A stretch of 64,000 nucleotides of DNA from Candidatus Undinarchaeales archaeon (GCA_030753015.1 JASMDC010000003.1:32001-96000); one strand, 5' to 3'; numbered from the stretch's first letter, positions 3,362-30,039 are shown. Program-made: numbers and translations. Notes: generated by a model not told the origin, from the letters alone.

Positions 3362-3379
3362 GTCACGTGAGTGCCGCTG

Positions 3380-3395
3380 CACTTTTAAAAAGACT
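3380..3395 (-). promoter_or_regulatory. Archaeal TATA box for the FG-GAP gene
   Basis: TTTTTAAAA on the minus strand about 25 nt upstream of GTG 3361, in GC-rich context. Confidence 0.5.
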
Positions 3396-12700: not shown

Positions 12701-15700
12701 CACGACCAGGTTATTGAGTATGTTCTCATAGAATGTAATCGCGTTCTCGTAATACTTCACAGCGGTGTTGTAGTAGATGTAGAGGTTCGGATGCGCCTTC
12801 TCGGGACAGGCGATGAAATGCTTCATGAACTTGACGTCGCATGCCACGCCCGAGAGACAGAACGCCATGCACACGGCCTCGCCAGCAAGCTCCGCACCCA
12901 TCTGGCCCCACGAACCGCCACCGCCTGTGAGCTGGGAACCGACACCGCCGGGTGCGAAGAGCGCCGTGCACGTCATACGGATTCCATAGAGCGTAAGGAT
13001 GGCCTCGAGCTTACTGTCACCGGACTTGTCGCACCCCTCGAAGCAGGCCAGCCGCGCGGCCACGTCCTCGACGAAAGCGCACTGGCCCTTGCACCCTTGG
13101 CAGTCATCCATACAACCCCCCTTATCATAGGCAGAGAAGCACACCGCATCGCAGATGCCGTTGGTGATCTCTACCGCAAGGTCGTCGATGCACTGGGCCG
13201 CGCACTGCTTGAGGTCAGGGGCGGTCAGCGGGCACATCGTGCACTTCTGGCACACCTCCATGCACCCGGGTTCTCCCCCGCACAGCTCCTGACAGATGTC
13301 GAACAGGATGCCGTTTACACAGTCCTTTGTCCCTTCGAGGAGACACTCTTTGATTTCCCCGCCCTCCTTCCCTGCGCACTGGACGTTGGATCGGCAGCAG
13401 GTGATGCATGTCAGCGGATTGGGGAAGTTCGAGCAGAAGGCGTCGCACTCGATAAAGAGCGACTGTGCACCGATACAACCACCTAGACAAGCGAGGCGGT
13501 CACCTGCAGGTCGCCTGCAACACATACCGCATCCGAGGCACACCTCTTTGCACGACTCGTACGTGCCCTCGTCCCGCCCCTCACACGCTTGCTCGCACAG
13601 GCCGGTTATGAGAGGTGGGCACACACAGTCGAGGAAGCAGCGGTCCCGAGAGCGTTTCGTGTCCTTGAATAGGCACTCCGTACAGCCGCAGCATTGGTCG
13701 AAGCACGGGCCTGACGTCTCGCCCTGGCATACCCACGGGCACGACGCTTGGCAGATGTCCAGGGCGTTGATGCATCCCTCGTTCACTAGGCACTCACGTA
13801 CCTTGCGGGCACCACCCGCCCACAGGCACTTGGTGCATCCGAGGCACGCACCGATGTCGATACCCGCGCTGGCCTCGAGCTCCTCGCAGATGTTTGTGAT
13901 GATGATCCCCGACTTGTGGAAGAGACAGCCCGTGATGCACTCGGTCAGCTGCGCCGGCTCCATGTCACCGTTGCATCCGTACGGACATCCCTGGCAGACG
14001 ACGCAGGTTGACACGCAGCGGGTGAGCTCTTGGCCGGAGAGTCCCAGTTGGTCCTGGCAGACGGTGAGGCAGGGGATCTCCAGTGGATTCCAGCAGCTCT
14101 TCAGGCAGTTGTTGCGCTTCTCCTTCTCCTCGATGTCATAGCAGGCGAGGCATGAGTCGCACACATCGTAGCATGACTTCATCTTGAGGTTGTTGGAATA
14201 GTCCGCACAGTTCGGTGTGAGCTCGATGAGGCATTCCCCGTGCATGCAGATGCCCCGCCTGGTGGTGAGGTCGTCGAAGCACACCTTTCCGTCGGCCCCA
14301 TCCTGTTTGCATACGGATGGGACCTTGATGGTATGAGCTATACAGGCTGGGGGCCGCCCGCCCGGGTAGACGCACACACCGCTACCCGCCGAGCACCACA
14401 CCTTACGGCCACGCTCCTGCCGCTGCTGGGCAACGGAGCACTCCTCGCGCCCGTTCCCTCCCAGCTCCATGCACTTTCCCTTGAGGCACACGTGCCCGGT
14501 CGTCTCGCACAGGTACCCGTCCGGCGCGGGCTTCGTCTTCTTTGTCTTGGGGTCCTTGTAGGTGCATCCACTGGACTTGCCGTAGTGGCACTCGCCACCG
14601 AAGCAGAACCCGCTGGACCCGGACTTCTCGGGATCGGTGCAGGGCCGCCCTTCGCTGTTGGGCGCTTTACATGTGATAGGTATCTTTCGCGCGCGACGCA
14701 CGCACGCCAGCCCCCCACCGAACATCCGCTTGCAGTACTGGGGGGGTTTCTTACCTTTGCACTCGGACGGAGTGTTGGGCAGCATCAGGCATGTGCCCTT
14801 AGAGCGGTAGCAAGTAGAGCCCCCGCCGGTCGCTAGTTCGCAGCTCCACTGGCCGTTCTTCTCCGTACACACCCCCTTCTGGCCGCCCGAGGCGGTGCAT
14901 GTCATGCCCGATGTCCCAGACTTGCCGCAGTCGGCCTGGGTGAGGACCTTGCAGTACGCGCCCACTTCTACACCCGAGCTGAGGCCCGCCTGTACCCCTT
15001 CCATGCATACGCCCTCGGCGCCATCCGCGGTACGACAGGCGTGACCAGAGGTCAGCATAGTGCACTGGTCCTCCACGGCCTGGTACTTGCCTGCGCACTC
15101 TTGATAGTTATAATCGGCCAGCTTCATGCACCTGCTCTGGAAGCAGATGCCATCCTTGGAGCATCTGTCACCATCGGCCTTGCCGGTGCACGGATTCTTC
15201 GTGGCGGGCAGCACGGTCTGCACGAGCGAGTCGAGCTTGTCGCCCAACGCGTCCACTGAGCATCCGATGGGCGTATGACAAGCTATCTTGCACCCGAGCT
15301 CGAAGGCACACTTCTGGAGGCACGTCGTACGCTCCTCCTTCGGGCCGAAGAAGCAGAACGTACACTTCTGACAGAGGTCTGTGCACACACCCACCTTCAT
15401 GCTTGGTTCGCACTGTGGATCGGAAATCGTGACCTCAGAGTAGGTCTCGGTCACCGTAGTAACGCCCGACTCCGGATCGTAGTCCTCGTACTTACTGTCC
15501 TGCTGATATCCAAGGTGGATGTCGCCTCCGAAGAGGTTGCTATCACCGAATGCAACATCAGCGAAGTTCTCGCACGCGATGGTGCACACCGCGCCCCCCA
15601 GGCAGTTCATAAGTAGGCATCGCCCGACCGCCTCGCCCCAGCTCTCGTCACCCTGTGGCTTGGCGAGCAGGCAGTACGCGCAGTTCTGGCAGATGAAGTT

Positions 15701-16954
15701 ACCGCGGTCCTCGCAATTGTCCTTATTGATCTCGACCCCCATGAACTCTACTTTATCCTTCATGTTCTTGCACATGACGTTCTTGACGATGAGCGGGCAA
15801 ACCTCGTACTGGAGTATGCAGGTGATGGTGCAGTTGAGGATCTTTTCCCCGTCCCAGATGAACTTCTTCTTCTTCACGTCGTAGTAGAAACCCTCGTTGA
15901 TACACTCGCCGCACTTGTAACAGATATCGAGGCAGGATGACTCATCGATGTCCACCGGCTCGTCGGACATCTTCTGGATGAGGGCGTCACCACCAGTGCA
16001 GATACCGGCACACATGGGGCCGATGATGAGCGCGCGGACGCCACAGGCCATGAAGCAGTTGGTTTGTTCCTGCTTACCATCCACGATGATGCACTCGCAA
16101 CAGTCCTCCACCAGTGCGTTGCACTCGTACTCCACCTGCACCTGCAGCGCCTTCTTCTGTGGGATGAAAGAGAATATCCCCTCCATCATGTTCTCGCAGA
16201 CCTCCCCCAGGAGTGGGGCTGCAAGCGTCTTGCACATGCATTTGCTGATGAGGCACTTGTTGAAGACCTCTTTCCGTCCCTTCGAGGTCTTGGGGCCACC
16301 TGAGGTGGGTATCAGCGTCAAGAGGCACTGACCACAGTTCTTGCATACGTTGAAGAGCAGTTCGTTATTACTCCGACAGGGCGCCTCGCATCCCATGATG
16401 TCCTCACAGACCTCGGAGAGGATTAGGTCACCTAGACAATGCTCGACCCAGCAATTGCTCTCCTTCGAATCACCGCCTGAGCCCGAGTCCGTGATGAAGC
16501 AGTCCAGGCACCCGCAACCGATCTCAACGCACTCGTCCGTGCGGACCCTGGGTATCCACGAGGATATGGCGTACTGGCAGGGGGGCTTGAGGATCATGTC
16601 GCAAAAGGGCTTGCCCAGGCACCGGATAAGGCAGGAAGTTCTCTTGCCCTCGGGCTCCAGGGCGCACTTCACGCACTCGATACGGGTGCAGAGCTTAGTG
16701 AGGAAGGGATCGCCACCGCACAGCTCCTTGCACAGGGGATTGATGATGGCCAGCAGCTGACGGATGACGCATTCCTGAAGACATTCACTGCGGGCTCCCG
16801 AGTCACTGATGCGAATGCACTCACCGCACTCGTAGCACATGTCGAGCATCTCGTCGCCCTTGATCGTGAAGTACTTACCAGAGGATGCCGTTGTGGGAAG
16901 GAGGAAGAGAAGGAACAGTACGAGCACCGCCATCCTCCCTCGTAAAGCTACCAA
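9755..16954 (-). CDS. Giant secreted Cys-rich protein (2399 aa) with C-terminal Ig-like domains and terminal Cys module, no TM anchor
   Basis: Signal peptide MAVLVLFLLFLLPTTASS; about 16 CxxxC..CxxCxxC..CxxxC repeats in two blocks; DG-x2-C repeats; three beta-rich Ig/CARDB-like domains; ends CRLAIECDGCNPECSVEIRSGCTAVFNLCTCDNC. Start TTG 16954 or ATG 16933. Confidence 0.9.
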   Translation of the reverse strand: MVALRGRMAVLVLFLLFLLPTTASSGKYFTIKGDEMLDMCYECGECIRISDSGARSECLQECVIRQLLAIINPLCKELCGGDPFLTKLCTRIECVKCALEPEGKRTSCLIRCLGKPFCDMILKPPCQYAISSWIPRVRTDECVEIGCGCLDCFITDSGSGGDSKESNCWVEHCLGDLILSEVCEDIMGCEAPCRSNNELLFNVCKNCGQCLLTLIPTSGGPKTSKGRKEVFNKCLISKCMCKTLAAPLLGEVCENMMEGIFSFIPQKKALQVQVEYECNALVEDCCECIIVDGKQEQTNCFMACGVRALIIGPMCAGICTGGDALIQKMSDEPVDIDESSCLDICYKCGECINEGFYYDVKKKKFIWDGEKILNCTITCILQYEVCPLIVKNVMCKNMKDKVEFMGVEINKDNCEDRGNFICQNCAYCLLAKPQGDESWGEAVGRCLLMNCLGGAVCTIACENFADVAFGDSNLFGGDIHLGYQQDSKYEDYDPESGVTTVTETYSEVTISDPQCEPSMKVGVCTDLCQKCTFCFFGPKEERTTCLQKCAFELGCKIACHTPIGCSVDALGDKLDSLVQTVLPATKNPCTGKADGDRCSKDGICFQSRCMKLADYNYQECAGKYQAVEDQCTMLTSGHACRTADGAEGVCMEGVQAGLSSGVEVGAYCKVLTQADCGKSGTSGMTCTASGGQKGVCTEKNGQWSCELATGGGSTCYRSKGTCLMLPNTPSECKGKKPPQYCKRMFGGGLACVRRARKIPITCKAPNSEGRPCTDPEKSGSSGFCFGGECHYGKSSGCTYKDPKTKKTKPAPDGYLCETTGHVCLKGKCMELGGNGREECSVAQQRQERGRKVWCSAGSGVCVYPGGRPPACIAHTIKVPSVCKQDGADGKVCFDDLTTRRGICMHGECLIELTPNCADYSNNLKMKSCYDVCDSCLACYDIEEKEKRNNCLKSCWNPLEIPCLTVCQDQLGLSGQELTRCVSTCVVCQGCPYGCNGDMEPAQLTECITGCLFHKSGIIITNICEELEASAGIDIGACLGCTKCLWAGGARKVRECLVNEGCINALDICQASCPWVCQGETSGPCFDQCCGCTECLFKDTKRSRDRCFLDCVCPPLITGLCEQACEGRDEGTYESCKEVCLGCGMCCRRPAGDRLACLGGCIGAQSLFIECDAFCSNFPNPLTCITCCRSNVQCAGKEGGEIKECLLEGTKDCVNGILFDICQELCGGEPGCMEVCQKCTMCPLTAPDLKQCAAQCIDDLAVEITNGICDAVCFSAYDKGGCMDDCQGCKGQCAFVEDVAARLACFEGCDKSGDSKLEAILTLYGIRMTCTALFAPGGVGSQLTGGGGSWGQMGAELAGEAVCMAFCLSGVACDVKFMKHFIACPEKAHPNLYIYYNTAVKYYENAITFYENILNNLVVIEVGMGVQTGFCVFAQGKELLQHGIGEMCLFGIPLYAPYPPMAGELWWNSCTVCWISSLASMLIPVQCQINKPFSSPIGIPFQIPTWSVAKECGKRTGIVDDICSVEPDLFSIGDTHDPMTYTFKVNQLTKYTNELVKDGGILKTGLMWVKKLREKARTCTVSGSCDNDIRQELEGLKASWQAADSVDVGKGGLTGGSESWSLEDYEEKLDEMSMWTKSFYNDASRSSSLEMIINRACSWNQFKEDDISPDYEKYIWRYGIITRCALYNLKTSSPGDFMWHDTDCLFYSASSDALGGPYEGGEEELPFEGEEEIDEECLGVRDGRQCMFGICCDDSCENVASCCELREDESQCNTISGNHGICCEGWCTADRESCEEVIEEEEDCIDDGDECSDGDGLCCNGRCFLERESCEGGGEEVCAGNDGVACDEGRGLCCDSSCVYNLEECPDGEVPVDDTCSPLCLQEHGTDGYCLPSSKRCACRTGLFPLVLEDARCEPALSEDTIERLEDYCDEQGSGEIDECHTSTSSSGYCCQGVLEEVPIGNEVVVSKRPKPSISALEWLDADGEPVRVAKVGEKLTLRAEITDYLDPLTNGELQLTVRTSTQTLLSRTIPDISVSPDTRRHISLELEVTAAMQNEVLLADAALLFAGNRVESEVMPRIFVPEPNTISVMDAAFFINDLRSTDAYPGDSVEAILEVVSSYSDTKQVSIIANLAEFQGTDISGTFNNDYPALEPYKPVAIKTGMLGSIGTYMAGGFINVTVVVKDRNDPSLIYTEIVLDAKRFPELALVVHNPYLTLTGIDFADSGGRMTESVYDGEDVTLRAKLRNDMGTNFQGNIELIVRDTDLNTVHREVFTNLEIFRGDDETLRTTFEARARRTSQEIEGGGSLILEPNDHVVELNAIDVNSAEWLDTVARTWRLRASPGGGGEEKVRILSTTRYDQCRLAIECDGCNPECSVEIRSGCTAVFNLCTCDNCMFKPLE

Positions 16955-19045: not shown

Positions 19046-19174
19046 ATGATGACCGTGGAGTCATACGCCCATATCGACTTCATCAAGGACTTCGATAGCT
19101 ACTTTGCTACCGATGGGATTGAACTCAACGAGAACCTCAACGACCAGTGGGCGAGCTGGATGATCTACTTCTAA
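19046..19174 (+). CDS. Small 42-aa acidic/aromatic protein
   Basis: MMTVESYAHIDFIKDFDSYFATDGIELNENLNDQWASWMIYF; host-like C-ending codons; TTAAAAAAAAA just upstream; below the ORF-track cutoff. Confidence 0.5.
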   Translation: MMTVESYAHIDFIKDFDSYFATDGIELNENLNDQWASWMIYF

Positions 19175-19229
19175 GGTCCGCGAAAGCGCCTCCTTGCACG
19201 TATTCACCCTGCGAAATGGAGTGCTGGCC

Positions 19230-19243
19230 AACAAACTATATAA
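19230..19243 (+). promoter_or_regulatory. BRE/TATA promoter of the pilin-like array
   Basis: CAAAC-TATATAA about 31 nt upstream of ATG 19274. Confidence 0.6.
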
Positions 19244-19273
19244 GGAGCCATGGGCACATCAATCTACAGGGAC

Positions 19274-19489
19274 ATGGCGACGCCATTGTCACGTCTGATG
19301 CGGGCGAACCGCGGGGAGGAGGAGCAATCCCTCCTGCTGGTAATCATCGTGGCAGTGATGGTTTTCGCCGTGCTCTGGCTCGCCATCGCAAAGTCGGGCC
19401 GAGCGGTCGCCCTGGTGTTCGCAGGTTTCTTCAAGATGATCTGGAGCACCATCAAGGGGATGACCGGGATGGATTACCTGTTCAGGTGA
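19274..19489 (+). CDS. Small type IV prepilin-like protein 1 (class III signal peptide)
   Basis: MATPLSRLMRANRG|EEEQSLLLVIIVAVMVFAVLWLAIA. Confidence 0.75.
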   Translation: MATPLSRLMRANRGEEEQSLLLVIIVAVMVFAVLWLAIAKSGRAVALVFAGFFKMIWSTIKGMTGMDYLFR

Positions 19490-19494
19490 AGGGC

Positions 19495-19689
19495 ATGGGA
19501 CGGCTCACCGATCTTATTCGCAGTCGGCGCGGCGCCATGGGCGAAGCCATCGAGATCAACTTCTGGACCATCGTCGCTGTGCTCGTTGTGGCCGTCATCG
19601 TGTTCACGCTCTACAATTTTGCTCGACAGGCCCAGCCATCCTTCGTTCAATGGATAGCGGACATAATGGACATGTCCATGGGTGAGTGA
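19495..19689 (+). CDS. Small prepilin-like protein 2
   Basis: MGRLTDLIRSRRG|AMGEAIEINFWTIVAVLVVAVIVFTLY; AGGTGA site upstream. Confidence 0.8.
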   Translation: MGRLTDLIRSRRGAMGEAIEINFWTIVAVLVVAVIVFTLYNFARQAQPSFVQWIADIMDMSMGE

Positions 19690-19690
19690 T

Positions 19691-19945
19691 ATGGGTCTGC
19701 TCGCGAATCGACGGGGTGTCAAGGCCAACGTGTACGACTTCATGATCTTCGTAATAATCTTCCTGCTGGTGCTCATGCTGGTGTTCACCCTTGCTGGCTG
19801 GCGGATGGTCGAGATAATTCACAAACCTGCTGAGCAGTGGGGGGACGATACGGCCGGTAAGGCACGGGATAATATGGCCTGGAACGGGGTGAAGAAATCC
19901 ACAGGATTCATCACGCTCCCGATGGGCGGCCTCTCCCTCACGTGA
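19691..19945 (+). CDS. Small prepilin-like protein 3
   Basis: MGLLANRRG|VKANVYDFMIFVIIFLLVLMLVFTLAG; GGTGA site upstream. Confidence 0.8.
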   Translation: MGLLANRRGVKANVYDFMIFVIIFLLVLMLVFTLAGWRMVEIIHKPAEQWGDDTAGKARDNMAWNGVKKSTGFITLPMGGLSLT

Positions 19946-19983
19946 AATTGGTAGGTAGGTACATCAAATTACTACTACCCAAT

Positions 19984-19999
19984 GACAACTTATATAAAA
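19984..19999 (+). promoter_or_regulatory. Internal TATA promoter in the pilin-like array
   Basis: ACAAC-TTATATAAAA in an AT-rich 90-bp gap before ATG 20035. Confidence 0.6.
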
Positions 20000-20034
20000 C
20001 TGTACGTATATAGTAAGTAATAGAGGGAGCACTC

Positions 20035-20247
20035 ATGCTACGCACCCTAATCAGGTCGAAACGTGGTGAGTTGGGCGGACCCACCCGCATTACTCTCAAG
20101 AAGATCCTCCCCGCGCTCATCATGATGGTGCTCTTCCTGCTCGTAGGCTTCGCCTTGCTCCGTTCACGCGGCTATCTGGACTTCGAGACCCTTACGGGCA
20201 CGTTCTCCAAGACCGTGGAATCGGGGATGGATATAGGAGGGATGTAG
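20035..20247 (+). CDS. Small prepilin-like protein 4
   Basis: MLRTLIRSKRG|ELGGPTRITLKKILPALIMMVLFLLVGFALL. Confidence 0.75.
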   Translation: MLRTLIRSKRGELGGPTRITLKKILPALIMMVLFLLVGFALLRSRGYLDFETLTGTFSKTVESGMDIGGM

Positions 20248-20251
20248 CACG

Positions 20252-20443
20252 ATGGACGTACGCCACCTGCACCCATTGAAGAAACTGCGCCGCCTGGGAC
20301 GCGACCAGCGCGGCATTACCATGTCACGAGACATGCTCATCGGGACCGTGATCGCCCTGCTCATGCTGGCGTTCCTGCTCATGGTCATCGGTGACCGGAT
20401 CGTGCCCATGGCGAACTCGGCGCTCTCGTGGGGACCAAAATGA
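20252..20443 (+). CDS. Small prepilin-like protein 5 (Flp-like leader)
   Basis: KKLRRLGRDQRG|ITMSRDMLIGTVIALLMLAFLLMVIG. Confidence 0.75.
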   Translation: MDVRHLHPLKKLRRLGRDQRGITMSRDMLIGTVIALLMLAFLLMVIGDRIVPMANSALSWGPK

Positions 20444-20874
20444 ACACACGTCGCGGGGTCGTTGGTATATTCTACCTCGTCCTTGCGGCAGTGATAACAC
20501 TGGCAGTCTCGATCCTCATCATGCAGTCAATGTACAGCAGGGCCGCCAATGCAGGGAAGAAACCGACCGATCAGGGCCTTCAGGGCAGGATCGTCGCTCT
20601 CTGCACTCAGCTCACCGGCCCGGACACCGTCGATGCAACAGAGACCATTGATCTCCCCGCCAAGGTGGACAGCCGCGAGGTCGCACGCCTTGTGATTGTG
20701 TACTGCTTCCCGGGGGTCTCTCCCGGCGATATCACGGTAGAGACGGACTGTTCGCGCGAAGCTCCAGGACACGTTCTCCACTGGTGCGGGCCTACCGAGC
20801 TGCTTGGTACAAAGCGCTTTACAGCAGAGATGTCCCGTGACACGGAGTTCGACGTCCGATTGAGGGTGAGCTGA
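20440..20874 (+). CDS. Prepilin-like protein 6
   Basis: MNTRRG|VVGIFYLVLAAVITLAVSILIM; ATGA overlap with the previous gene; four Cys. Confidence 0.8.
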   Translation: MNTRRGVVGIFYLVLAAVITLAVSILIMQSMYSRAANAGKKPTDQGLQGRIVALCTQLTGPDTVDATETIDLPAKVDSREVARLVIVYCFPGVSPGDITVETDCSREAPGHVLHWCGPTELLGTKRFTAEMSRDTEFDVRLRVS

Positions 20875-21468
20875 ATGATAGCCGTCGACTCGTTCCGCAA
20901 GGTCGTGGGATTCGTCGTCATTCTAGGTCTCATCGTTGCCCTCATATATGGCGTTGCTCACGAGAGGATATCGCGCGTGGGGAACAAGTTCGTTGACATG
21001 TTCGCGTGCCCCCCCCTCGCAACCTGCGGCACTGGATCAAAGAAGGAGTGCCCCATCTTAGCTAGCCTCGAAATGCCGATCCTCACTAAAGGCGACTCGC
21101 TCATGGCCGGCAAGTGCCGACTTCGCATATGCAACCGGAAGTCCGTTGGGGGTGAGCCCAACCGCGACTATCGGGTGGAGGTCTGCCGGAGCGCCGTGGC
21201 CAATCCCGGTAAGAAGGGGGTGGCCGAACAGGAGTGCGTCCTCCTCACCGATCCTAAAGGTAAGGTGAAGCAGTTCAACCTCGCAAAGGAAGGGGTGACC
21301 GAGTATGAGTGTGCCAATGTCTGGCGCCCTGCCGATCTCGACCTCACCCGGTCTGAGCGCGAGGTATCGATAGACCTGACAATCAACATCAAGAACAGCA
21401 CTGGGCTGTTCAAGGTGGTGGACACTAAATGGAACGTACGCTACCAGCATCCGCTCGACGAAGCATAG
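20875..21468 (+). CDS. N-terminally anchored Cys-containing protein 7 of the array
   Basis: Hydrophobic VVGFVVILGLIVALIYGVA; no clear RG cleavage motif; coupled to both neighbours. Confidence 0.75.
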   Translation: MIAVDSFRKVVGFVVILGLIVALIYGVAHERISRVGNKFVDMFACPPLATCGTGSKKECPILASLEMPILTKGDSLMAGKCRLRICNRKSVGGEPNRDYRVEVCRSAVANPGKKGVAEQECVLLTDPKGKVKQFNLAKEGVTEYECANVWRPADLDLTRSEREVSIDLTINIKNSTGLFKVVDTKWNVRYQHPLDEA

Positions 21469-21659
21469 GGCAGCTGATCCGCGGTGAACGCGGCGGGATG
21501 GCCGACGCCCCAATCTATTCTTTAGCAACGCTTATATTGGTGGCTGTGTTAATCTACCTCGTATACACATGGTTATCAAGCAAACCAGAGATGATCACAA
21601 ATGTCTTCGGAAGGACCCTAGACATGCTTACAGGAGCCTTTGAGGGGTTTTTAGGATGA
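21429..21659 (+). CDS. Small prepilin-like protein 8
   Basis: LIRGERG|GMADAPIYSLATLILVAVLIYLVYTWL; start uncertain. Confidence 0.7.
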   Translation: MERTLPASARRSIGQLIRGERGGMADAPIYSLATLILVAVLIYLVYTWLSSKPEMITNVFGRTLDMLTGAFEGFLG

Positions 21660-22117
21660 ATAAGAAAGGATCTATGGACACGTCGGTCGCAGCCCTTATA
21701 GCCATCGTACTTGGTGTAGGCGTTATTGCCTTCGGTGTCTATGGGCTCAACAAGGGCCAACGGACCTCGGACAATGTGGGCGTCATGGGAGATGCGGCTC
21801 GAAGCCGCCTCGATCCCCGGACGCTGGGTAAGTGCGCTGACTGGCACGATGATGGATACCCGCTCGGTATCGACGTCCTTCAGTACACCTATGGCTTCCC
21901 CACTATGTTTACTGGACAGACTATTTCTGGATGCAAGAACCTCCCTGACAAGATGGCAAAAGCCAGGGAAGAAGGCATCCCGAGCTTGAAGTTCAGTGAC
22001 AGTGATGTGAAGCGATGCGCTACCTACTGTGCAAAGATCGCACAGGAACGGGACAAGTGCATGTCCCAGCGCGATCCGCAGGCATGCATGGCCGAGGCAT
22101 TCGCAAAGGTAAGATAA
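21656..22117 (+). CDS. Prepilin-like protein 9 with Cys-rich helical domain
   Basis: MNKKG|SMDTSVAALIAIVLGVGVIAFGVY; CADW...CATYC-x9-C motif. Confidence 0.85.
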   Translation: MNKKGSMDTSVAALIAIVLGVGVIAFGVYGLNKGQRTSDNVGVMGDAARSRLDPRTLGKCADWHDDGYPLGIDVLQYTYGFPTMFTGQTISGCKNLPDKMAKAREEGIPSLKFSDSDVKRCATYCAKIAQERDKCMSQRDPQACMAEAFAKVR

Positions 22118-22136
22118 CCTGATACGGGGAACTACC

Positions 22137-22670
22137 ATGAGGAGACGGGGTTCGTTAAGTCAGTGGTTGGGCGGGCGCGCCAGCATGAGCGTGAGAGTTC
22201 GTCGCGCCACCATCAATCTGAGCCTTGGCATGCTTGTAGCAATGGTGTTCGTCGTGCTCCTCGTCGCAATGGGTGCGCTCTCAGCCAGTCGTACCAAGAA
22301 GGATGTGCAGAAAAGGTCCAAGGAATTCACGGTCCAGGTCCGCTCTCAGCTCCTCTCTGCCAATCCTGTTGCGAAGTCCTGCTCCTTGTGGTTCTCCCAG
22401 GGACTTGGTATGCCCACGGCCGTTAACTACTACAAGGTCCCCAGTTCGTCCAAGTATGCCACCTGGGGTTGCTGCGACGACCTGGATGGGCTCGAACATG
22501 ACAAGCTCAACGCCCAAAAGGTGAACAAGTGCCTCAAATCGTGTGGTCAGGCACTCTCACTGTTGGAGCGTTGTAGCCAGGACTGGGACATCATGGACGG
22601 AGGCAAGTACGAGGATGCCCAGACCTGTTACAAGTCACGGTTCGAAAAGGACGTGAGGTGTGTCTCATGA
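22137..22670 (+). CDS. Prepilin-like protein 10 with Cys-rich helical domain
   Basis: VRVRRA|TINLSLGMLVAMVFVVLLVAMG; CSLW...CLKSC-x9-C; may start at 22185. Confidence 0.8.
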   Translation: MRRRGSLSQWLGGRASMSVRVRRATINLSLGMLVAMVFVVLLVAMGALSASRTKKDVQKRSKEFTVQVRSQLLSANPVAKSCSLWFSQGLGMPTAVNYYKVPSSSKYATWGCCDDLDGLEHDKLNAQKVNKCLKSCGQALSLLERCSQDWDIMDGGKYEDAQTCYKSRFEKDVRCVS

Positions 22671-23077
22671 TCCGGACCCGCGCCCAAATGAGCTTCATGC
22701 CTCTTGCCGTGGTCATCCTTGGCCTCCTCTTCCTCACCATCGGGCTCATCCTCATCTACAACGCACGCGAAATCCAGAAGTCCGAGAAGGATATCGTCCT
22801 GTTCGAGAGTATTACATCGATACACAACATCTGCCGGTTCTGGAAGAATCCGGGACTGTACGTGGATGTCGCCATGCCTAATCAGCTTGGCGCGGCCTTC
22901 GAGTCTGCGGGGCTGAACAAAGTCAACCCATGCTCAAACAACGCAGACGGCATCAGGTATTGCATGCTGAAGTGCGAGGCGCTGGAGCGGCTCGTAATGG
23001 TGTGTAATGTGCACGGAAATGAGCGCAATGTGGAAGAGTGTAGCTCAACCAATATACGGAGCTTGCTGACGAAATGA
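22667..23077 (+). CDS. Prepilin-like protein 11 with Cys-rich helical domain
   Basis: MIRTRA|QMSFMPLAVVILGLLFLTIGLILIY; CRFW...CMLKC-x9-C; ATGA overlap. Confidence 0.85.
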   Translation: MIRTRAQMSFMPLAVVILGLLFLTIGLILIYNAREIQKSEKDIVLFESITSIHNICRFWKNPGLYVDVAMPNQLGAAFESAGLNKVNPCSNNADGIRYCMLKCEALERLVMVCNVHGNERNVEECSSTNIRSLLTK

Positions 23078-23086
23078 GGGAATGTC

Positions 23087-23650
23087 ATGACTAGCGAAGG
23101 GCTGATGCAGGCGCTGGTGGTGTTCATTCTGGGACTGGTGGTGCTTGCCGCCGGCGTCCAGATGCTTTCAAGGGCCAAGAAGGTCACCATGAGGAGCGCT
23201 GTCATCCCCAGTGACTACCAGGAGCTCGGCCGAATGAAGAAGCTTGTGGATAACTGTGGCGAAACAGGGTGGGGCGCGGACCTCATCCGTGGCAAGCTCC
23301 TCTCAGGTAAGGTCGAGTGCGACACTACCTGTAAGGCCAACTTCGCGGAGCACTACCGGGAAATCCCACGTGCGGTGAATGGTCTGAAGTTCATCGAGAA
23401 GAAGAGCCGGTTCTGCTCCTCCTCGGGGTGCCCGGCTACGCGCCGGTGCGCCGAGGCGATGGAACTGGCGAGCATCGGCAGTACTTCGACTTATAAAGAT
23501 AAGTTGAAAGGATACGCTGAAGCCTGTGCCCAGGTCTGCGCTTGGAGCATGCAACGTTATGAAGTGTGCGCGTCCCAGATGGCGGAGGTGTACGCCAAGG
23601 GAAGTGGCTTCAGTTCGCCCTGTGCAGACAGGGAGGCTGAACTACCGTAA
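23087..23650 (+). CDS. Prepilin-like protein 12 with Cys-rich domain
   Basis: MTSEG|LMQALVVFILGLVVLAAGVQML (atypical leader); CAQVC-x9-C motif. Confidence 0.75.
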   Translation: MTSEGLMQALVVFILGLVVLAAGVQMLSRAKKVTMRSAVIPSDYQELGRMKKLVDNCGETGWGADLIRGKLLSGKVECDTTCKANFAEHYREIPRAVNGLKFIEKKSRFCSSSGCPATRRCAEAMELASIGSTSTYKDKLKGYAEACAQVCAWSMQRYEVCASQMAEVYAKGSGFSSPCADREAELP

Positions 23651-23662
23651 AGGTGAGGGAAA

Positions 23663-24160
23663 ATGGTTCCATCAACGACATCGAACCGGGGCCAGGGGCA
23701 GCCGGTCTGGATTCTCGTGGCCGTTCTTCTAGCGGTCATCGTGGCCGTGACCATGTATCGGCTCGTCACAAGGCTCGACGTGGATGAGCTGCCTGACATG
23801 GACAGTGAGACGGCAACGACCCGATTCACGCAGCAGTGCAAACAGTGGGATGACATGGACTGGAACCAATACAGCAAGCCCAAAGTAACGGAATCCAAGC
23901 ATTCCATGGAGTTGTATGCTTGGCGTGCGAACCAAATCCTTACGAAGGAGGAGGTTGAGGCTGGCAAGCAGGTCCAGCCGTGCGACTGTATCGTCTACCT
24001 CCACATGCGCAACCTCATCGACTACGGTGAGGTCATCCAGCTGTGGAAGCAGCACAAAGAATGCAATTCCTGGGCCAAGAACACCGGATGCTCGAAGAAC
24101 TTCTGTGGAACGGCTTCGGCAGCCTCGGAGTGCAAGAAGGCCCATGCGTGCCCTACCTAG
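23663..24160 (+). CDS. Prepilin-like protein 13
   Basis: MVPSTTSNRG|QGQPVWILVAVLLAVIVAVTMY; CKQW; Cys-rich C-terminus. Confidence 0.85.
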   Translation: MVPSTTSNRGQGQPVWILVAVLLAVIVAVTMYRLVTRLDVDELPDMDSETATTRFTQQCKQWDDMDWNQYSKPKVTESKHSMELYAWRANQILTKEEVEAGKQVQPCDCIVYLHMRNLIDYGEVIQLWKQHKECNSWAKNTGCSKNFCGTASAASECKKAHACPT

Positions 24161-24749
24161 TCCCTGCCGACGCGCCACCATCGACGTGTTCGGGCTGGTC
24201 GCTCTAGCAATATTCGGCCTTATAGCGGCCGTCCTCCTCATCCGTTTCACCGGGCTCACGATGGGTGCAATGGGCGAGACCCATGCCGCCAAGAACATCA
24301 ACGAGATAGTCGTGGGGGCCCGTAAGGCCTGCCGGGACGGTGAGGCCGTCGTGAGCGCCTTCACCGTTCCCGAGCAGTACGCGTACGTGGTACGCACCTG
24401 CAATCTGTGGGAGTGCACTGACGGCAACTGCCAGGACGAGACGATCGCCGGCCATAACTGGCCCCTGGACGCCGATAGCAAGCGCAAGGTGTTCGACAAG
24501 TTCTGCAACGGTCGTGACTCACAGAACCTCCTGGCCGCCTGCTACATAATCTATGGCGTCCACCACGACTGGGGACCGCTGGGGCAGCTCATGGGATGGA
24601 AGCGCATCGTCGCAAAGACGCGTAAGTGCGAGAACATCCACTGCGGCATACCCTACGATATCAATCTCATCATGCCCGGCAAGCAGAAGTACCGCATGAA
24701 CATCGTCAGGGACGGCGAAGCCCTGGTGGGGAGGCAGTACGATGTCTGA
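24144..24749 (+). CDS. Prepilin-like protein 14
   Basis: MRALPSPCRRA|TIDVFGLVALAIFGLIAAVLLI; start moved to ATG 24144. Confidence 0.8.
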   Translation: MRALPSPCRRATIDVFGLVALAIFGLIAAVLLIRFTGLTMGAMGETHAAKNINEIVVGARKACRDGEAVVSAFTVPEQYAYVVRTCNLWECTDGNCQDETIAGHNWPLDADSKRKVFDKFCNGRDSQNLLAACYIIYGVHHDWGPLGQLMGWKRIVAKTRKCENIHCGIPYDINLIMPGKQKYRMNIVRDGEALVGRQYDV

Positions 24750-26037
24750 GCTCCTTGGTCGCAAGCGGGGCCTCCTGGGCATCAAGTTCTGGTTCATGGT
24801 ATTTGTGGTCATGGCGTTCATGGTCGCCGTAAGCATGGCCATGAACATCCTCTATGTAGGACAGACCGTGCGGGCCGCGGACGAGCTCGGCCGGATCAAA
24901 ACGTATTTGGAGGCCGTGTGCCACGGGAACGTTGGCGACTACCGTACCTTCGGCGCCCCACCGTTCGGCGTGATCGTACGAGTAGACTCTTGTGACAAGG
25001 TGCTCGCGAAGAGCGCGGTCCGGGGTGCGGTGGGCGTGGGCGTGATGACAAAACACATAACATCGATCGCCAACATGGGCAAGAAGCCCAAGGCCCTCAA
25101 GCAGATGGCCGACAAGGCCGACGATCTCGCGAAGATGTCGGGCTCAAATGTGAAGACCGCCACTGATGCCGCTCGGATAACCGAGGCCAATCAGGCGCTT
25201 ACCAAGAACCTGGCCATGTTCAAGGATCCTAGCAAGAGACTCTTCCAGATACCTGTCCCCTCGAAGATGGCAGGGGTCCACAACAAGGTGGTGATGGCCC
25301 TGGACAAGACCGGCATCGTGTCAGCCAACGGTGCCAAAGCCCAGAAACACATCGTAGAGATCTACAAGATACAGGGGCAGCTGGGCCGCACCAAGGACGC
25401 AGCCCAAGCGGCCAAGCTGTATGCTCAATGGGGCAACCATGCCGACGAGGCCTACAAACTCGCACACACGGCCGGTCGGTTCGGCACGGGAATGAAGTTT
25501 GCACAGGGCGCGCTGTACACTAGCTGCGTGGGCACGTCTCTTGCAGGTTATGTCAAGGAGGTCGATGTCGTACCGGAAGGGGCCCAGAAGGCCATCGAGG
25601 ACGTCCACACGGCCACACGTGACTTCATCTCCGATAATGCGGGGCCCGCGGGCGGGACGGTGGGCGCCCTCCCCGCCGAGGGAGTCCCATGCCTAGCCTA
25701 CTCGCTCTCGAGAGGGGCGAGCCTCAAGGGCGCCACTGGATTCCTTGGTGGCGCGGTCACGAGCACGGCCTTCAACATCCTTGGTGGTCGGATGCTCGGT
25801 CAATCGGCCGCCATGATATCCAGCTTCGCTACCCGGTGCCCGGGAGCTAGTAATGGCCTGGCAATCTGCGTCCAGAAGTCCAAGTGCGAGGGCGATGAGA
25901 AGGGACCGTGCTCCGCTTGCGATGTTATATCCTGTCGTGTCCCCATCAAGGTTGAGTCCCGCCCCTTCGATCCGAAGATAACCGTTTCCCATGAGGGCGA
26001 CGTCGTGAAGCTCAATGGGGGTGTCGAGCCATTCTGA
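24742..26037 (+). CDS. Prepilin-like protein 15 with large Ala/Gly/Lys-rich insertion (431 aa)
   Basis: MSELLGRKRG|LLGIKFWFMVFVVMAFMVAVSMAM; both ends resemble protein 14. Confidence 0.85.
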   Translation: MSELLGRKRGLLGIKFWFMVFVVMAFMVAVSMAMNILYVGQTVRAADELGRIKTYLEAVCHGNVGDYRTFGAPPFGVIVRVDSCDKVLAKSAVRGAVGVGVMTKHITSIANMGKKPKALKQMADKADDLAKMSGSNVKTATDAARITEANQALTKNLAMFKDPSKRLFQIPVPSKMAGVHNKVVMALDKTGIVSANGAKAQKHIVEIYKIQGQLGRTKDAAQAAKLYAQWGNHADEAYKLAHTAGRFGTGMKFAQGALYTSCVGTSLAGYVKEVDVVPEGAQKAIEDVHTATRDFISDNAGPAGGTVGALPAEGVPCLAYSLSRGASLKGATGFLGGAVTSTAFNILGGRMLGQSAAMISSFATRCPGASNGLAICVQKSKCEGDEKGPCSACDVISCRVPIKVESRPFDPKITVSHEGDVVKLNGGVEPF

Positions 26038-26039
26038 GG

Positions 26040-26522
26040 TTGCTCGCGGCCAAGCGCGGCCAGGCATCCACCGTGTCCGAGTCCCTCTCGGAGTTCGCCA
26101 AGTTCGTGGCGGCCATCATAGTCTTCGCCCTCGTCCTCGGGGCGTTCCTTGCCCTTCTGGTCAACATGCATAAGCTCTCCCTCATCATGAACGCCCGCAT
26201 CGTGGCCGACGCCATCGCAGGGGCGATAGCGGCGGTGTCCACAGCACCCGACCAGGCCACGTTCTGCTATACTGTCCCCTCATTCGCTACATACCGCGTC
26301 GTCATCGGCGGCGGGGCCGTGCTAGTGGTGCAAGCAGGAGAACAGGCCTTCGGTATATCCCCCTACCCTGTTCCGGGCGTGGAGTCCGCCGAACTCCTCG
26401 TTGGCAAGGACCAGATGAGCGCGGTGATCGTCATTCGCAAGATACGTGTGGGCGCCTCCGAGCAGATATCGGTGACGGCCCCGGAGGAGTTCGAGTTAAA
26501 GCGGTGCGCGGAGGTTATCTAG
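26040..26522 (+). CDS. Prepilin-like protein 16
   Basis: MLAAKRG|QASTVSESLSEFAKFVAAIIVFALVLGAFLALLV; ARIVADAIAGAI helix then beta strands, as in archaeal minor pilins. Confidence 0.85.
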   Translation: MLAAKRGQASTVSESLSEFAKFVAAIIVFALVLGAFLALLVNMHKLSLIMNARIVADAIAGAIAAVSTAPDQATFCYTVPSFATYRVVIGGGAVLVVQAGEQAFGISPYPVPGVESAELLVGKDQMSAVIVIRKIRVGASEQISVTAPEEFELKRCAEVI

Positions 26523-26523
26523 G

Positions 26524-28158
26524 ATGCTCGAAGAACAGGTGTTCATAATCGTGATGGTCATCCTACTTGTGACCATTGTCGGTGGCGGGGTTTCTGCCTG
26601 GTTCAAGTTCACCGAGTCCATTGAGAGCGACGTCGAGTACCGGGCTGCCGTCAAGGTGGCGCACAGACTCGCAGGCTCATCACAATGCCTCACCTACCTC
26701 TCCGCGACACAACGCGCGAGCAAGAACGTGCTCGACGCCAACAAGCTCAAGCTCGCCAACGAGGTCTACGGCAGCGACCGTTCCAAGGGGCTCTTCTCCC
26801 TTGGGGGTCTCATGGGACTCGGGAGCGCTGACGGGAACCTCCCCCGCGAGCATCCGTGCGCCTTCCTCATGGGATTCCGATGGCAGGCCCATATAGTTGA
26901 TCTTGAGTTCTTCACCGACATGGAAGAGGAACAGCGAGAGGAGCTCTCTGAACGGTACGGCTGCCTCCTAGCTAAGGACTCGTGCTTATGGGATATGGGG
27001 AAACCCTTTAGCTTCACACCGCGCCTTGAGCACCTTGAGGCGAAGGACGCCGAGGAACGAAGCGATGATCACTTCTGCAGCGGCCAGGACTGGTGCGCGA
27101 GCATGAAGAACAGCTTGGATAAATGTCTCAGTAAGGGGGATGAGGACCTCAAAGGGCTGACGAATCCAACGGCCCCGGTGAAGATCCCGATCACAATCGC
27201 TATCACCAATGAGATCGGCCAGCTCGAGAAGCATATGGGCTATCTCCAGGTCGTGGTCATACCCAGCGATCGCCACTGCACCCGCGAGGACTACGGGGAG
27301 CGCGCATTTTACATGGGTGAGAACACGGCGATAATCGGTAAAGAATGCTGTCTCTTCGACCTCCAGGAAGGCGTATGCCGCGGAAACCTGCGAGCCGCGC
27401 AAGCGGTCCAGGCCAAGTTCGCCCGCACGGTGTACATTTTCTCAGGGGTCGGGACGCTCGCCAACCTAATAACCGGCCACTGCCCCGAGTACGAGTACCT
27501 CGCGAAGGATGATTACATCGCTTGTGGCTGTGAGAACAAGGGGCAGCCAATGGAGGTCATCGGCGTCGATGGCCCTCCAGTGGTCGGCACCGGTTGCCCG
27601 CGGAACAACTTCTTTGCCGTAAAGGTACAGAACCGTAACTGGGAGAAGCCTGCCACCGTGAAGGCCATCAAGCTCACTGTAGGGGGTAACGACTATCTGC
27701 CCTGCACGAAGGACACTTGTGGTCTGCCGACGGGAACGATCTGGGTGAATCCCTCCGAGGAGGTCGATCCCCGCTCGGTGGCCACCTACGTGTTCGGGGT
27801 GCCGGCCGAGGACCTTTCCGGCGACGAGGCCGAGGTCACCGTCACCATGGAGTATTCTGTCCCCAAGATTTCCTCACCCTACAAGAAGCCCAAGGACTGC
27901 CGGGAGTCGGGACACCTGTACGTGTGCACTCACATCCTCAAAGCGACCTATCCCGCCACCGGGTGCGTCGGGGAGGGATTGAAGGACGCGTGCATGGGCC
28001 AGATATGCAGCAAGGATCAGGTGTGCTGTTCTGCGGGTGGATGCATTTCCAAGGAGCGCAAGAACCATTGCGAGGCGGCGGTGACTGGGTGGGACAGCCT
28101 GAAGAAGGAAGGCGAGGCCCTCATGAAGGGCAGTCAGGAGGGCGAGAAAGATGCATAG
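26524..28158 (+). CDS. Large pilin-array protein 17 (544 aa, Cys-rich, N-terminal TM)
   Basis: MLEEQVFIIVMVILLVTIVGGGVSAW; GGAGG site upstream; no basic leader visible. Confidence 0.8.
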   Translation: MLEEQVFIIVMVILLVTIVGGGVSAWFKFTESIESDVEYRAAVKVAHRLAGSSQCLTYLSATQRASKNVLDANKLKLANEVYGSDRSKGLFSLGGLMGLGSADGNLPREHPCAFLMGFRWQAHIVDLEFFTDMEEEQREELSERYGCLLAKDSCLWDMGKPFSFTPRLEHLEAKDAEERSDDHFCSGQDWCASMKNSLDKCLSKGDEDLKGLTNPTAPVKIPITIAITNEIGQLEKHMGYLQVVVIPSDRHCTREDYGERAFYMGENTAIIGKECCLFDLQEGVCRGNLRAAQAVQAKFARTVYIFSGVGTLANLITGHCPEYEYLAKDDYIACGCENKGQPMEVIGVDGPPVVGTGCPRNNFFAVKVQNRNWEKPATVKAIKLTVGGNDYLPCTKDTCGLPTGTIWVNPSEEVDPRSVATYVFGVPAEDLSGDEAEVTVTMEYSVPKISSPYKKPKDCRESGHLYVCTHILKATYPATGCVGEGLKDACMGQICSKDQVCCSAGGCISKERKNHCEAAVTGWDSLKKEGEALMKGSQEGEKDA

Positions 28159-28750
28159 GGAGTCCATCCGACGTCTCCTCGCCCGGGCGCGTCGGACCCG
28201 CCGCGGAATGGGGATGGGCACGGCCTTCACCGCGGGCCTCACCATCATGACCGTGGGGCTCGCCCTCATCGTCGCGACATCCCGCATCAAGGTCAACGTC
28301 ATGCTTGCAGAGGAGCAGGCATGGGATCCCACCTACCAGCTCCTACTCTCGCTGGCCGAGTCCACCGTTGTGATACGTGAGGGCGACCATCGTGCGGTGC
28401 TGAGCACGTTCGACATCCTCTCCATGGTGGGAGCGACACAACAGTCCAAGGTCGTCGTTCGGGTTGGTGGTAAGAGCATTACCGTTGACGTGAACGAACT
28501 GCTGGAGAAGAAGCTCAAACGTCCTTTCCAGCTCATCGGCCGGAACCAGGTCCATATCGTGCTCACGGATATGGACCAGAAGAAGGTCATCGTTGAGTAC
28601 CCGCGGCGCAACACCGTGGACTATCGTGCCTGGCTGGAGAAGGAGAACTTCGAAGTAAGCCGCGTGACCTCGGCCCGTATGCTCGTCCCGCTCCCTGACG
28701 GCACATCCACGGCCACGCTCCTCCTCCAGTATGCGGAGGTGTACTCATGA
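28151..28750 (+). CDS. Prepilin-like protein 18
   Basis: RARRTRRG|MGMGTAFTAGLTIMTVGLALIVA. Confidence 0.8.
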   Translation: MHRESIRRLLARARRTRRGMGMGTAFTAGLTIMTVGLALIVATSRIKVNVMLAEEQAWDPTYQLLLSLAESTVVIREGDHRAVLSTFDILSMVGATQQSKVVVRVGGKSITVDVNELLEKKLKRPFQLIGRNQVHIVLTDMDQKKVIVEYPRRNTVDYRAWLEKENFEVSRVTSARMLVPLPDGTSTATLLLQYAEVYS

Positions 28751-30039
28751 TGCGACGCCGTCTCAACGTCGGCCGGTCCCGCTCGGCAGTTGGCTGGTTC
28801 CTATGGCTCGCTCACGCGACCCGCGGCGTTGCCCCGGCAGTGCTCATGCTCGGTGCATCGGTCGCGCTCACCATCGGGATGTCCATGTACGTCACTGCCA
28901 AGCTCCAGGGGGACGCGGTCGTGAAGTCCATTACCCAAGAGGCGAAGATACTCAAGCGGATCCATATCAACGAGGCCGCGCGGCTCTACGCACGCCAATC
29001 CATCAGGACCGTTGTGAACCAGGCAGTGGCCGATGTTCTGCGTTACGGTGGTTTCACGGACCCCGCCTTCACCGCTCTTGGGACCGTGACCATAAGTCAG
29101 AGCAAGGTCGTGCTGCTCGAGAAATGCGAGCAACAAGGGGGAGGTGATGTGACGTGGAAGAAAGCGTGCGAGCAGGAGCTCGATCCGTTCCTGGAGGGCG
29201 ACATCACGGTCATAACGGAACGCGCTCGCGAGAGCATAGGTCAGCTTGTGCCCGAACGGATCGGGGCCGCCGTAGCAGCACATAACCGCGAGGACCAGGA
29301 CGCCATGATTCGTCTCACCTCGCCGGACATCCATATGGACTTCAACGATGATGCCGTGTCTGTTATCGTCCCGCTCAACATCACTACCTACCTTTCCAAC
29401 AAGATGGGCGTTGTCTCCTCGCCCGACTATGTTTCCGAGACGGTGCAGGTGCGCATGATGAGGCTCTTTGAGATCGGGCTGGAGGTTTCACGATTGGACC
29501 TTCACGAGCGTAGCCAAGAGGCACTGTGCGGCGTGTGCGACCGCTATCCCGATCGGCGCCCGATGGCAAAGGACCTGCGTACCATCATGGACGAGGCCCT
29601 TGACAAGATCGAGGAAGAGTATGCCGAGGAGTATGCCGACGATGGTATCACGATCTCCATCTCCCTTGTCGAAGGGACCCAGTTCCACATCTTACCGACG
29701 GCAAAGCCCTTCGATCGGGTCGAGGAGGATGGTGTGTCGGTCGTTAGCTGGAATGAACCGGAAGCGGATGACGCACCAGTTCCCTGGCAACTGTACATGA
29801 ACGGCGAGGTGGCCGAGGATCCTGCGAGCGGAAAGAAGAGCGGTCGATACGGCCTGGGCGCCGATCTTGTCATCCATGTCCGTGCAGAGGACCAGCGGAC
29901 CTACCTCCCTTATTTGGTACAGCGTGGCACGAAGATAGACTACGAGTACCGGCCCATCGCTGTGGAGTTCGTGCTCAAGAAGCGTGTGTGGGAGGGCGAC
30001 GACTCGAAGTGCTCCCTCACAGCCGAGTGCGAGGGATAG
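28747..30039 (+). CDS. Large prepilin-like protein 19 (430 aa)
   Basis: AHATRG|VAPAVLMLGASVALTIGMSMYV; GGAGGTG site; ATGA overlap. Confidence 0.8.
   Translation: MMRRRLNVGRSRSAVGWFLWLAHATRGVAPAVLMLGASVALTIGMSMYVTAKLQGDAVVKSITQEAKILKRIHINEAARLYARQSIRTVVNQAVADVLRYGGFTDPAFTALGTVTISQSKVVLLEKCEQQGGGDVTWKKACEQELDPFLEGDITVITERARESIGQLVPERIGAAVAAHNREDQDAMIRLTSPDIHMDFNDDAVSVIVPLNITTYLSNKMGVVSSPDYVSETVQVRMMRLFEIGLEVSRLDLHERSQEALCGVCDRYPDRRPMAKDLRTIMDEALDKIEEEYAEEYADDGITISISLVEGTQFHILPTAKPFDRVEEDGVSVVSWNEPEADDAPVPWQLYMNGEVAEDPASGKKSGRYGLGADLVIHVRAEDQRTYLPYLVQRGTKIDYEYRPIAVEFVLKKRVWEGDDSKCSLTAECEG

Follow-up and report, generated by a model that had tools for sequence, protein, structure and literature searches.

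A nineteen-gene cassette of pilin-like proteins in a Candidatus Undinarchaeales archaeon as the probable subunit set of a lineage-specific type IV filament machine

The Epd pilus of Methanococcus maripaludis is encoded by 11 genes, two of which specify platform proteins, and its main pilin lacks a globular head (PMC13705601; here and below, statements on published systems refer to the accessible text of the papers cited). For the DPANN archaea, 'dark matter' pilus islands have been noted with putative pilins that have no detectable resemblance to those known (Makarova, Wolf and Koonin, 2019; PMC6393860), and genes for ATPase and platform have been described as adjacent in these organisms, with pilin genes scattered and filament formation unclear (Sivabalasarma and Albers, 2026; PMC13705601). 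All Undinarchaeota genomes have been reported to encode pili (Dombrowski et al., 2020; PMC7414124). Here, we describe an array of 19 genes, g01 to g19, at positions 19274-30039 of a 64,000-nucleotide stretch of DNA (the window) from a Candidatus Undinarchaeales archaeon (GCA_030753015.1, JASMDC010000003.1:32001-96000; G000:C51:32001-96000 in our collection). The source genome comprises 3.85 Mb on 117 contigs and is 98.9% complete with 5% contamination. The array probably supplies the subunits of an archaeal type IV filament machine that is lineage-specific and very rich in subunits, for which we infer cleavage, assembly, the roles of the subunits and the target.

The likeness to the Epd system lies in the combination of a FlaI/TadA-type ATPase, a TadC/FlaJ-type platform protein, an A24 peptidase and several pilins in one transcription unit, and the small proteins g01-g05 and g08 resemble the Epd main pilin in being headless. 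The locus differs from the Epd locus as described in that it comprises 19 pilin-like genes that fall into no detectable pilin family, is split in this genus, features an ATPase of about 740-790 aa with an N-terminal domain of its own, and has one 726-aa platform gene after the ATPase on contig C26 instead of two. Two T2SSF matches each are present in further loci of the same genome on contigs C63 and C75. With the DPANN islands our system shares an ATPase and TadC beside signal-peptide proteins dissimilar to known pilins. Whereas DPANN pilins are termed scattered (PMC13705601), they are contiguous with the motor in the class treated here, and the accessible accounts do not mention a collinear cassette of 17-19 genes, positional orthology or hydrolase-bearing subunits, although their supplements may list such loci. 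The accessible literature likewise holds no account of the cassette itself or of archaeal pilin-like proteins fused to SLT or M23 domains, with the same proviso for the supplements of PMC13705601, PMC6393860 and PMC7414124. A preliminary description of the stretch had proposed an undescribed system. This stands in so far as no characterized pilus locus matches in the accessible literature, but unrecognizable pilins in DPANN archaea are already in print in general terms (PMC6393860). New here are the number and the fixed order of the subunits as well as the murein hydrolase fusions found in relatives.

All 19 open reading frames are located on the + strand and are tightly packed, with 17 of the 18 junctions being overlaps or gaps of at most 19 nucleotides. 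The sole longer gap of 89 nucleotides (19945-20035) contains the second of two TATA-like boxes (about 19992-19999, within 19990-20000, + strand), while the first (about 19236-19243, within 19233-19245, + strand) is situated about 30 nucleotides 5' of the g01 start at 19274. Both boxes are identical in G001, a genome from the same genus in which nearby non-coding bases vary, and are putative promoters on the basis of sequence. In each of the 19 proteins the N-terminus is the most hydrophobic 19-residue window (mean Kyte-Doolittle value 1.85-3.3). The preliminary description, which had listed 19 coupled genes with N-terminal hydrophobic helices and two TATA promoters, is thus confirmed in these points, the promoters being taken as sequence motifs; the grading of sizes along the array that it also claimed exists as a rough trend and not as a monotonic order.

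Six proteins of 63-84 aa are free of cysteine. These are g01 (19274-19489, 71 aa, leader ending in NRG, 93% identity in G001), g02 (19495-19689, 64 aa, RRG, 97% identity in G001), g03 (19691-19945, 84 aa, RRG), g04 (20035-20247, 70 aa, KRG), g05 (20252-20443, 63 aa, QRG) and g08 (21429-21659, 76 aa, ERGG), the gene for which overlaps g07 by 40 nucleotides. Weak similarity connects g02 with g04 (E 2e-5) and g08 (E 1e-4). The proteins of 136-201 aa comprise g06 (20440-20874, 144 aa, helix immediately after RRG, 4 Cys), g07 (20875-21468, 197 aa, 8 Cys, N-terminal helix without [KR][GA]), g14 (24144-24749, 201 aa, RRA before the helix, 9 Cys including one in the leader), g16 (26040-26522, 160 aa, KRG-Q leader), which belongs to the best conserved family, g18 (28151-28750, 199 aa, RRG leader, no Cys) and the Cys-rich group g09-g13, the members of which have a C-x2-W motif after the helix in common. 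This group consists of g09 (21656-22117, 153 aa, KKG leader, 6 Cys), g10 from the same family (22137-22670, 177 aa, RRA before the helix, 8 Cys), g11 (22667-23077, 136 aa, TRA before the helix, 6 Cys), g12 (23087-23650, 187 aa, no basic leader, 10 Cys) and g13 (23663-24160, 165 aa, NRG-Q leader, 8 Cys). The three large proteins of 430-544 aa are g15 (24742-26037, 431 aa, leader KRG, KRA in G001), g17 (26524-28158, 544 aa, 26 Cys, no basic leader) and g19 (28747-30039, 430 aa, TRG leader). Apart from the six small proteins and g18, all proteins contain cysteine (2-26 residues), and the number is even in 11 of these 12, which fits the expectation for disulfide-bonded domains outside the cell.

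G001 contains all 19 genes in the same order, with protein identities of 88-97.5% and a DNA identity of 89.9%. Differences between the window and G001 amount to 170/85/812 at codon positions 1/2/3 over 3549 codons and, to judge from this pattern, the 19 genes are real and under constraint. Contigs with 100% identity from three metatranscriptome libraries (two studies) fall on g09, g10, g11/g12, g13, g14, g15, g16, g17 and g19; DNA carry-over is possible in such libraries, contig depth cannot rank the genes, and the lack of coverage for g01-g08 and g18 is uninformative. One single contig from an RNA library (21644-22128) corresponds almost exactly to g09 and carries adapter at both ends; it may represent a short, abundant or processed transcript.

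None of the 6 PF00437, 7 PF00482 and 4 PF01478 matches in the genome resides on C51, the contig that includes the window. The preliminary description had noted the absence of ATPase, platform and peptidase from the window and considered the cassette as standing alone. While the first point is borne out by the family searches, independence is contradicted by the gene arrangement in relatives. In G003, a 760-aa ATPase (PF00437 at 9.4e-11) and, next to it, a 708-aa polytopic protein are encoded directly upstream of the array; ATPase, platform and gene series are likewise contiguous in G009, and the platform gene adjoins the array in G011. The orthologous ATPase of the source genome is encoded at C26:55565-57868 (55% identity to that of G003, PF00437 at 4.8e-14). 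The best relatives of the ATPase among solved structures are 2oap (1e-24), CpaF (1.6e-16) and FlaI (7.1e-15). On C26 the gene is followed by genes for the 726-aa polytopic protein, a 954-aa Cys-rich protein and a 640-aa protein with RRRGQ and a helix. PF00482 does not detect the 726-aa protein, but the platform aligns with the genome's own TadC profiles over 237 columns (hhalign probability 97.2%, E 2.8e-11). The genome furthermore encodes four A24 peptidases (PF01478 above the cut-off) on contigs C42, C117 and C28 (two on the last), none linked to the cassette, and G003, G007, G009 and G011 have one match each beside 5-7 T2SSE matches. Motor and peptidases are thus present elsewhere in the genome. 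Cassette and motor are split only in the large-genome genus, in which both loci are internal to long contigs.

The N-terminal 290 residues of the ATPase occur once per genome in all 17 species genomes of the class in our collection. A search of 24 small archaeal genomes outside the class found them in eight, and records titled Woesearchaeota contain them at 41-48% identity. In these outside lineages with the long ATPase, no array follows the platform gene at the loci inspected. The type IV filament system therefore comprises a core of DPANN-wide occurrence, joined in this class by a contiguous cassette of many subunits. In every lineage inspected, the long ATPase has a divergently encoded neighbor, a small coiled-coil protein with an R-x-R-hydrophobic-hydrophobic-E motif (L032:506-919, L026:4856-5287, L033:9258-9734 and L034:9477-9866, all on the - strand; further L041:19433-19828 and L042:16718-17137), which is a candidate for an additional core component.

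The conservation of gene order, for which synteny in related genomes had been proposed as a check, extends well beyond the genus. In G011, which like the array itself has 19 genes in this order, the platform gene and the array are located at a contig end and the series starts with genes for five small proteins (51-64 aa), proteins of 160 and 178 aa, one of 52 aa and four Cys-rich proteins (137-242 aa), followed by g13-, g14-, g15-, g16-, g17-, g18- and g19-like genes. G003 contains 18 genes in the same order except that the g15-like gene is placed last, and G002 from the family with the smallest genomes has a shorter series after ATPase and platform. From position 7-9 onward, the cassette is collinear gene for gene in the 0.9-1.2 Mb relatives of the class. 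For the small genes, shortness and divergence preclude an assignment by sequence. The positional partner is also the best-scoring one in eight of 19 cases for the window versus G011, in 11 of 18 for the window versus G003 and in 12 of 18 for G011 versus G003, where about one is expected by chance; g07 and g18 have their best-scoring partner at the corresponding position in G003, and g11 in both G003 and G011. BLAST detected homologues of g09/g10, g11, g12, g13, g15, g16, g17 and g19 in G003, G007, G009 or G011. With a g16 profile, the family was found in seven of the 17 genomes of the class, and its presence follows families (f1 2/2, f3 1/1, f4 4/4, f2 0/10). The same profile retrieved 24 clusters at E <=0.001 and 13 at <=1e-10 from 1.84 billion representative proteins, and a word-index homologue search with g13 yielded two proteins. 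Alignments are shallow because homologues are this few. The genomes of the source genus (3.6-3.85 Mb) exceed by far the 0.6-1.2 Mb found for the remaining 15 species genomes in the class, and the genus possibly is a relative, with a large genome, of a lineage that has undergone reduction.

A second line of evidence is provided by the leaders. In 13 of the 19 proteins, a [KR]G motif occurs no more than 18 residues ahead of the helix, and inclusion of RRA or TRA in g10, g11 and g14 raises the number with [KR][GA] to 16, the figure already given in the preliminary description. Class III signal peptidases accept A as well as G at the cleavage position. As a control we inspected 448 other open reading frames of the genome with an N-terminal helix, a set that itself includes other likely pilins. 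With the motif at most 15 residues before the helix, [KR]G occurred in 88 (19.6%) and [KR][GA] in 127 (28.3%) of them, compared with 11/19 (binomial p 2.6e-4) and 14/19 (p 5.4e-5) in the array at the same threshold. [KR]G is hence enriched in the array relative to other N-terminally anchored proteins. When N-termini of 48 residues were compared, 12 of the 13 [KR]G genes had retained [KR]G in G001, the exception being g15 with a change from G to A. Pooled differences in the leaders versus G001 are 15/6/29 by codon position 1/2/3, a distribution from which the leaders are judged to be faster-evolving yet coding. Later starts that would delete the leaders of g02, g05, g08, g09 and g18 are unlikely, since tight coupling and the third-position bias within the leaders fit the upstream starts; the internal Met residues of g08 (21498) and of g09 are Ile in G001, which for g08 favors the upstream start. 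The RRG motifs might also suggest a twin-arginine translocation signal. Judged by general sequence features, this was rejected, as no S/T-R-R-x-F-L-K pattern occurs and the helices combine great length with strong hydrophobicity.

From these observations, a mode of operation can be proposed. The products would be inserted into the membrane by their N-terminal helix such that the basic leader faces the cell interior, and most of them would then be cut after [KR][G/A] by one of the four A24 peptidases. The divergent FlaI/TadA-type ATPase and the 726-aa TadC-like platform encoded on C26 would extract the subunits and pack them by their N-terminal helices into a filament on the cell surface. The six Cys-free proteins of 63-84 aa are candidate Flp/Epd-like shaft subunits without a head domain, the disulfide-rich proteins of 136-201 aa may serve as low-abundance or specialized subunits, and a conserved module at the distal end or tip may consist of g15, g17 and g19 together with g16 and g18. 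The tip complexes of bacterial type IV pili and of type II secretion systems contain four or five minor pilins or pseudopilins that are encoded in a fixed gene order, and large tip-associated proteins occur. The archaeal cassette resembles these complexes in its varied pilin-like proteins in fixed order and its large, possibly tip-associated proteins, and differs from them in that about a dozen such proteins are present and no match in sequence or fold is found.

Structure prediction gives partial support to this proposal. The AlphaFold2 model of g16, computed from a six-sequence alignment, features a helix from residue 3 to 67 followed by seven strands (predicted local distance difference test, pLDDT, 74.7; predicted template modeling score, pTM, 0.62). 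The predicted architecture of a 65-residue N-terminal helix plus beta domain is pilin-like, as archaeal pilins and archaellins have a long N-terminal helix and then a beta domain. This model is compatible with the pilin fold suggested for the array, for which no clear structural match was obtained. For g19, the ESM Atlas yielded hypothetical-protein clusters from Nanobdellota with template modeling (TM) scores of 0.51-0.54 and a weaker row for a bacterial N_methyl prepilin cluster, which can be taken as a lead only; for g17 the model was poor and no usable match was obtained. Profiles of the g16 and g09 families found nothing below E 1.9 among solved structures. A complex prediction for g17 (26-330) and g16 (44-160), both with helices removed, gave no answer (score 0.00) and is evidence neither way.

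Several observations weigh against a filament. Not one of the 19 proteins matches Pfam or NCBIfam at or above the cut-off. All rows are at chance level, the best pilin-related one being DUF7287 for g03 (E 0.13), and there is no match to the NCBIfam archaellin family, while no search aimed at ArlF, ArlG, ArlH or ArlCDE/X was made. This absence carries little weight in the present lineage because the canonical-looking RGQ pilins beside the ATPase on C63 also escape Pfam. The g16 model found no pilin in the PDB with Foldseek (best E 0.37, immunoglobulin-like domains), and a VIA wide search returned matches to the long helix only (best Z 5.4). The low-confidence AlphaFold2 model of g09 (nine sequences, pLDDT 60.8) is mostly helical and does not show an alpha-beta pilin head, so that the Cys-rich group g09-g13 may lack a classical pilin head. 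No motif precedes the helix in g07, g12 and g17, although orthologues of g17 have KG, RRRGQ or RKA at this place. The spacers between G and helix reach 6-8 residues in g04 and g16, and many exceed the textbook length for pilins. Only nine of 18 orthologues in G003 and 11 of 19 in G011 have [KR]G, and many small ones begin at the helix, implying that processing is not universal. Finally, since cassette and motor reside on different contigs in the source genome, their functional coupling there is deduced from relatives, and four or five other T2SSE loci could serve the same substrates. On balance, the claim of a pilin-like subunit cassette for a complex pilus holds with respect to the linkage to type IV filament genes in relatives, the peptidases and the g16 model; it is overdrawn as regards independence, a tie to the neighboring giant Cys-rich genes and class III processing as an established step, such cleavage being putative here.

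These giant genes are the basis of an alternative that we consider improbable. According to it, the array would encode a short pseudopilus or piston instead of a long pilus, comparable to bacterial type II secretion or the archaeal bindosome, that uses the same motor and helps to export or display giant disulfide-rich proteins. The ATPase/platform core would be the same as for a filament, and many distinct subunits in fixed positions suit a machine better than a homopolymer. A 954-aa Cys-rich protein is encoded directly after the platform on C26, and giant Cys-rich genes flank the array. Such genes are, however, so common that their adjacency means little: the genome contains 76 stop-to-stop frames of at least 900 aa with at least 3% Cys (in the window for example at 2-3382, 4709-9745, 9755-16954 and 34124-42214), together about 129,000 residues or about a tenth of the genome. 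Proximity is accordingly given little weight, and the tie to the giant genes drawn in the preliminary description is unsupported. Moreover, the giant proteins examined have ordinary Sec-type signals, the cassette is kept in small-genome relatives, and an outer barrier that would require a piston is not known for the lineage (no dedicated test was made).

It is quite improbable as well that the products are type II signal-anchor envelope proteins which are neither cleaved nor polymerized and form a surface layer or a contact patch, the adjacency to the motor reflecting co-regulation only. The many orthologues without leader in relatives, the missing match to any pilin family or fold and the helical head in the low-confidence g09 model would agree with such proteins. 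Against them speak the order ATPase-platform-array in G003, G009 and G002 and platform-array in G011, genomes that represent three families, the enrichment and conservation of [KR][GA] and the pilin-like architecture predicted for g16. An integrated virus or mobile element encoding many small membrane proteins is highly improbable even though the array has many such proteins without known family and the G+C content drops to 55-57% over 18-24 kb versus about 60% around, because none of the ten larger proteins g06, g07 and g12-g19 matches PHROGs, no integrase or tRNA gene was seen beside the array, and the array keeps its gene order in three families within the class, is joined to cellular core genes for type IV filaments and follows families in its presence (7/17).

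If the cassette encodes the subunits of a type IV filament, G007 and G009 provide a clue to its function through their homologues of g16 and g19. Those of g16 contain an SLT domain (7.2e-9 and 1.7e-7; L030:9074-10321, - strand, and L029:6854-8011, + strand), and those of g19, 2032 and 2287 aa long, comprise M23 peptidase domains (1.9e-34 and 4.7e-16; L030:1031-7129, - strand, and L029:11077-17940, + strand). One of these hydrolase-bearing homologues also has a weak GH39 row. Among the control genomes, the M23 and SLT families match only bacteria. The position of murein hydrolases on the distal, most conserved module suggests, as far as domain content can tell, a filament that contacts and opens bacterial walls. 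Since the tip-module hydrolases occur in small-genome relatives, the apparatus probably served ancestrally to contact the wall of another cell and to breach it locally. The g16 (160 aa) and g19 (430 aa) proteins of the window itself have neither SLT nor M23 domains, and adhesion or contact is therefore the safest reading for the cassette described here. One may go further and regard cassette and C26 motor as the large-genome version of an ancestral, class-wide apparatus in which g16-g19 form a wall-breaching tip and about 19 pilin-like proteins have fixed places. This is possible though rather unlikely. If true, it would be an archaeal machine that pierces bacterial murein for attachment, feeding or predation and thus goes beyond an adhesive pilus. 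In the source genome, M23 domains are found in four giant, Sec-type secreted frames of 1901-2252 aa on other contigs, one of which, on C21, has SLT besides M23 (hydrolase domains at C20:6515-6799, C53:23373-23666, C41:23066-23383, C21:2006-2320 and C21:5831-6139).

Large extracellular SLT proteins from Pacearchaeota and Woesearchaeota have been taken to point to bacterial hosts (Castelle et al., 2021; PMC8204110). Both cases involve small-genome archaea with murein-degrading domains; compared with the proteins in that account, the SLT and M23 domains described here are part of g16 and g19 homologues and are seen only in G007 and G009, the window lacking them. A possible functional analogy exists with the type IV pili of episymbiotic Saccharibacteria (PMC9894109, PMC11623550), which these ultrasmall organisms use in locating and keeping a host; these pili are bacterial and have recognizable pilins, unlike the proteins studied here. 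For the contact of small-genome (DPANN-type) archaea with other cells, the locus offers a testable parts list in the form of one conserved long ATPase, one platform protein and 17-19 collinear anchored subunits. The hydrolase fusions make the question of whether bacteria are attacked or attached to answerable by enzymology, proteomics and imaging, and the fact that a relative with a 3.85-Mb genome keeps the cassette bears on whether the apparatus predates genome reduction.

Some further loci deserve mention. Shortly upstream of the array, a small acidic open reading frame of 42 aa without hydrophobic helix (19046-19174, + strand) follows an A-rich stretch; G001 retains this frame, the membership of which in the array is uncertain. 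The C-terminal domain of g13 is shared with a DsbA-like protein at C63:4403-6688 (L036:404-2689), a membrane-anchored protein of 761 aa with two DsbA-like thioredoxin domains, the C-terminal part of which resembles the Cys-rich domain of g13. Its gene is located upstream of a canonical-looking locus for pilin, ATPase and two TadC proteins. On C66, a stand-alone gene pair (6864-7058 and 7192-7653) encodes a 64-aa anchored protein with KGG before the helix and a g09 paralogue with 43% identity. One of the giant Cys-rich frames in the window contains a Kazal domain. Positions 19100-29000 are nearly completely represented in marine or seawater metagenome runs, ten of which may be the source of the sequence, and five further runs from four studies contain 0.62-0.91 of the words. 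Downstream in the window, genes for the synthesis of coenzyme F420 (CofD, CofC and two radical-SAM CofG/H-like proteins) are situated at 45214-48800, which seems unexpected for a DPANN-related lineage.

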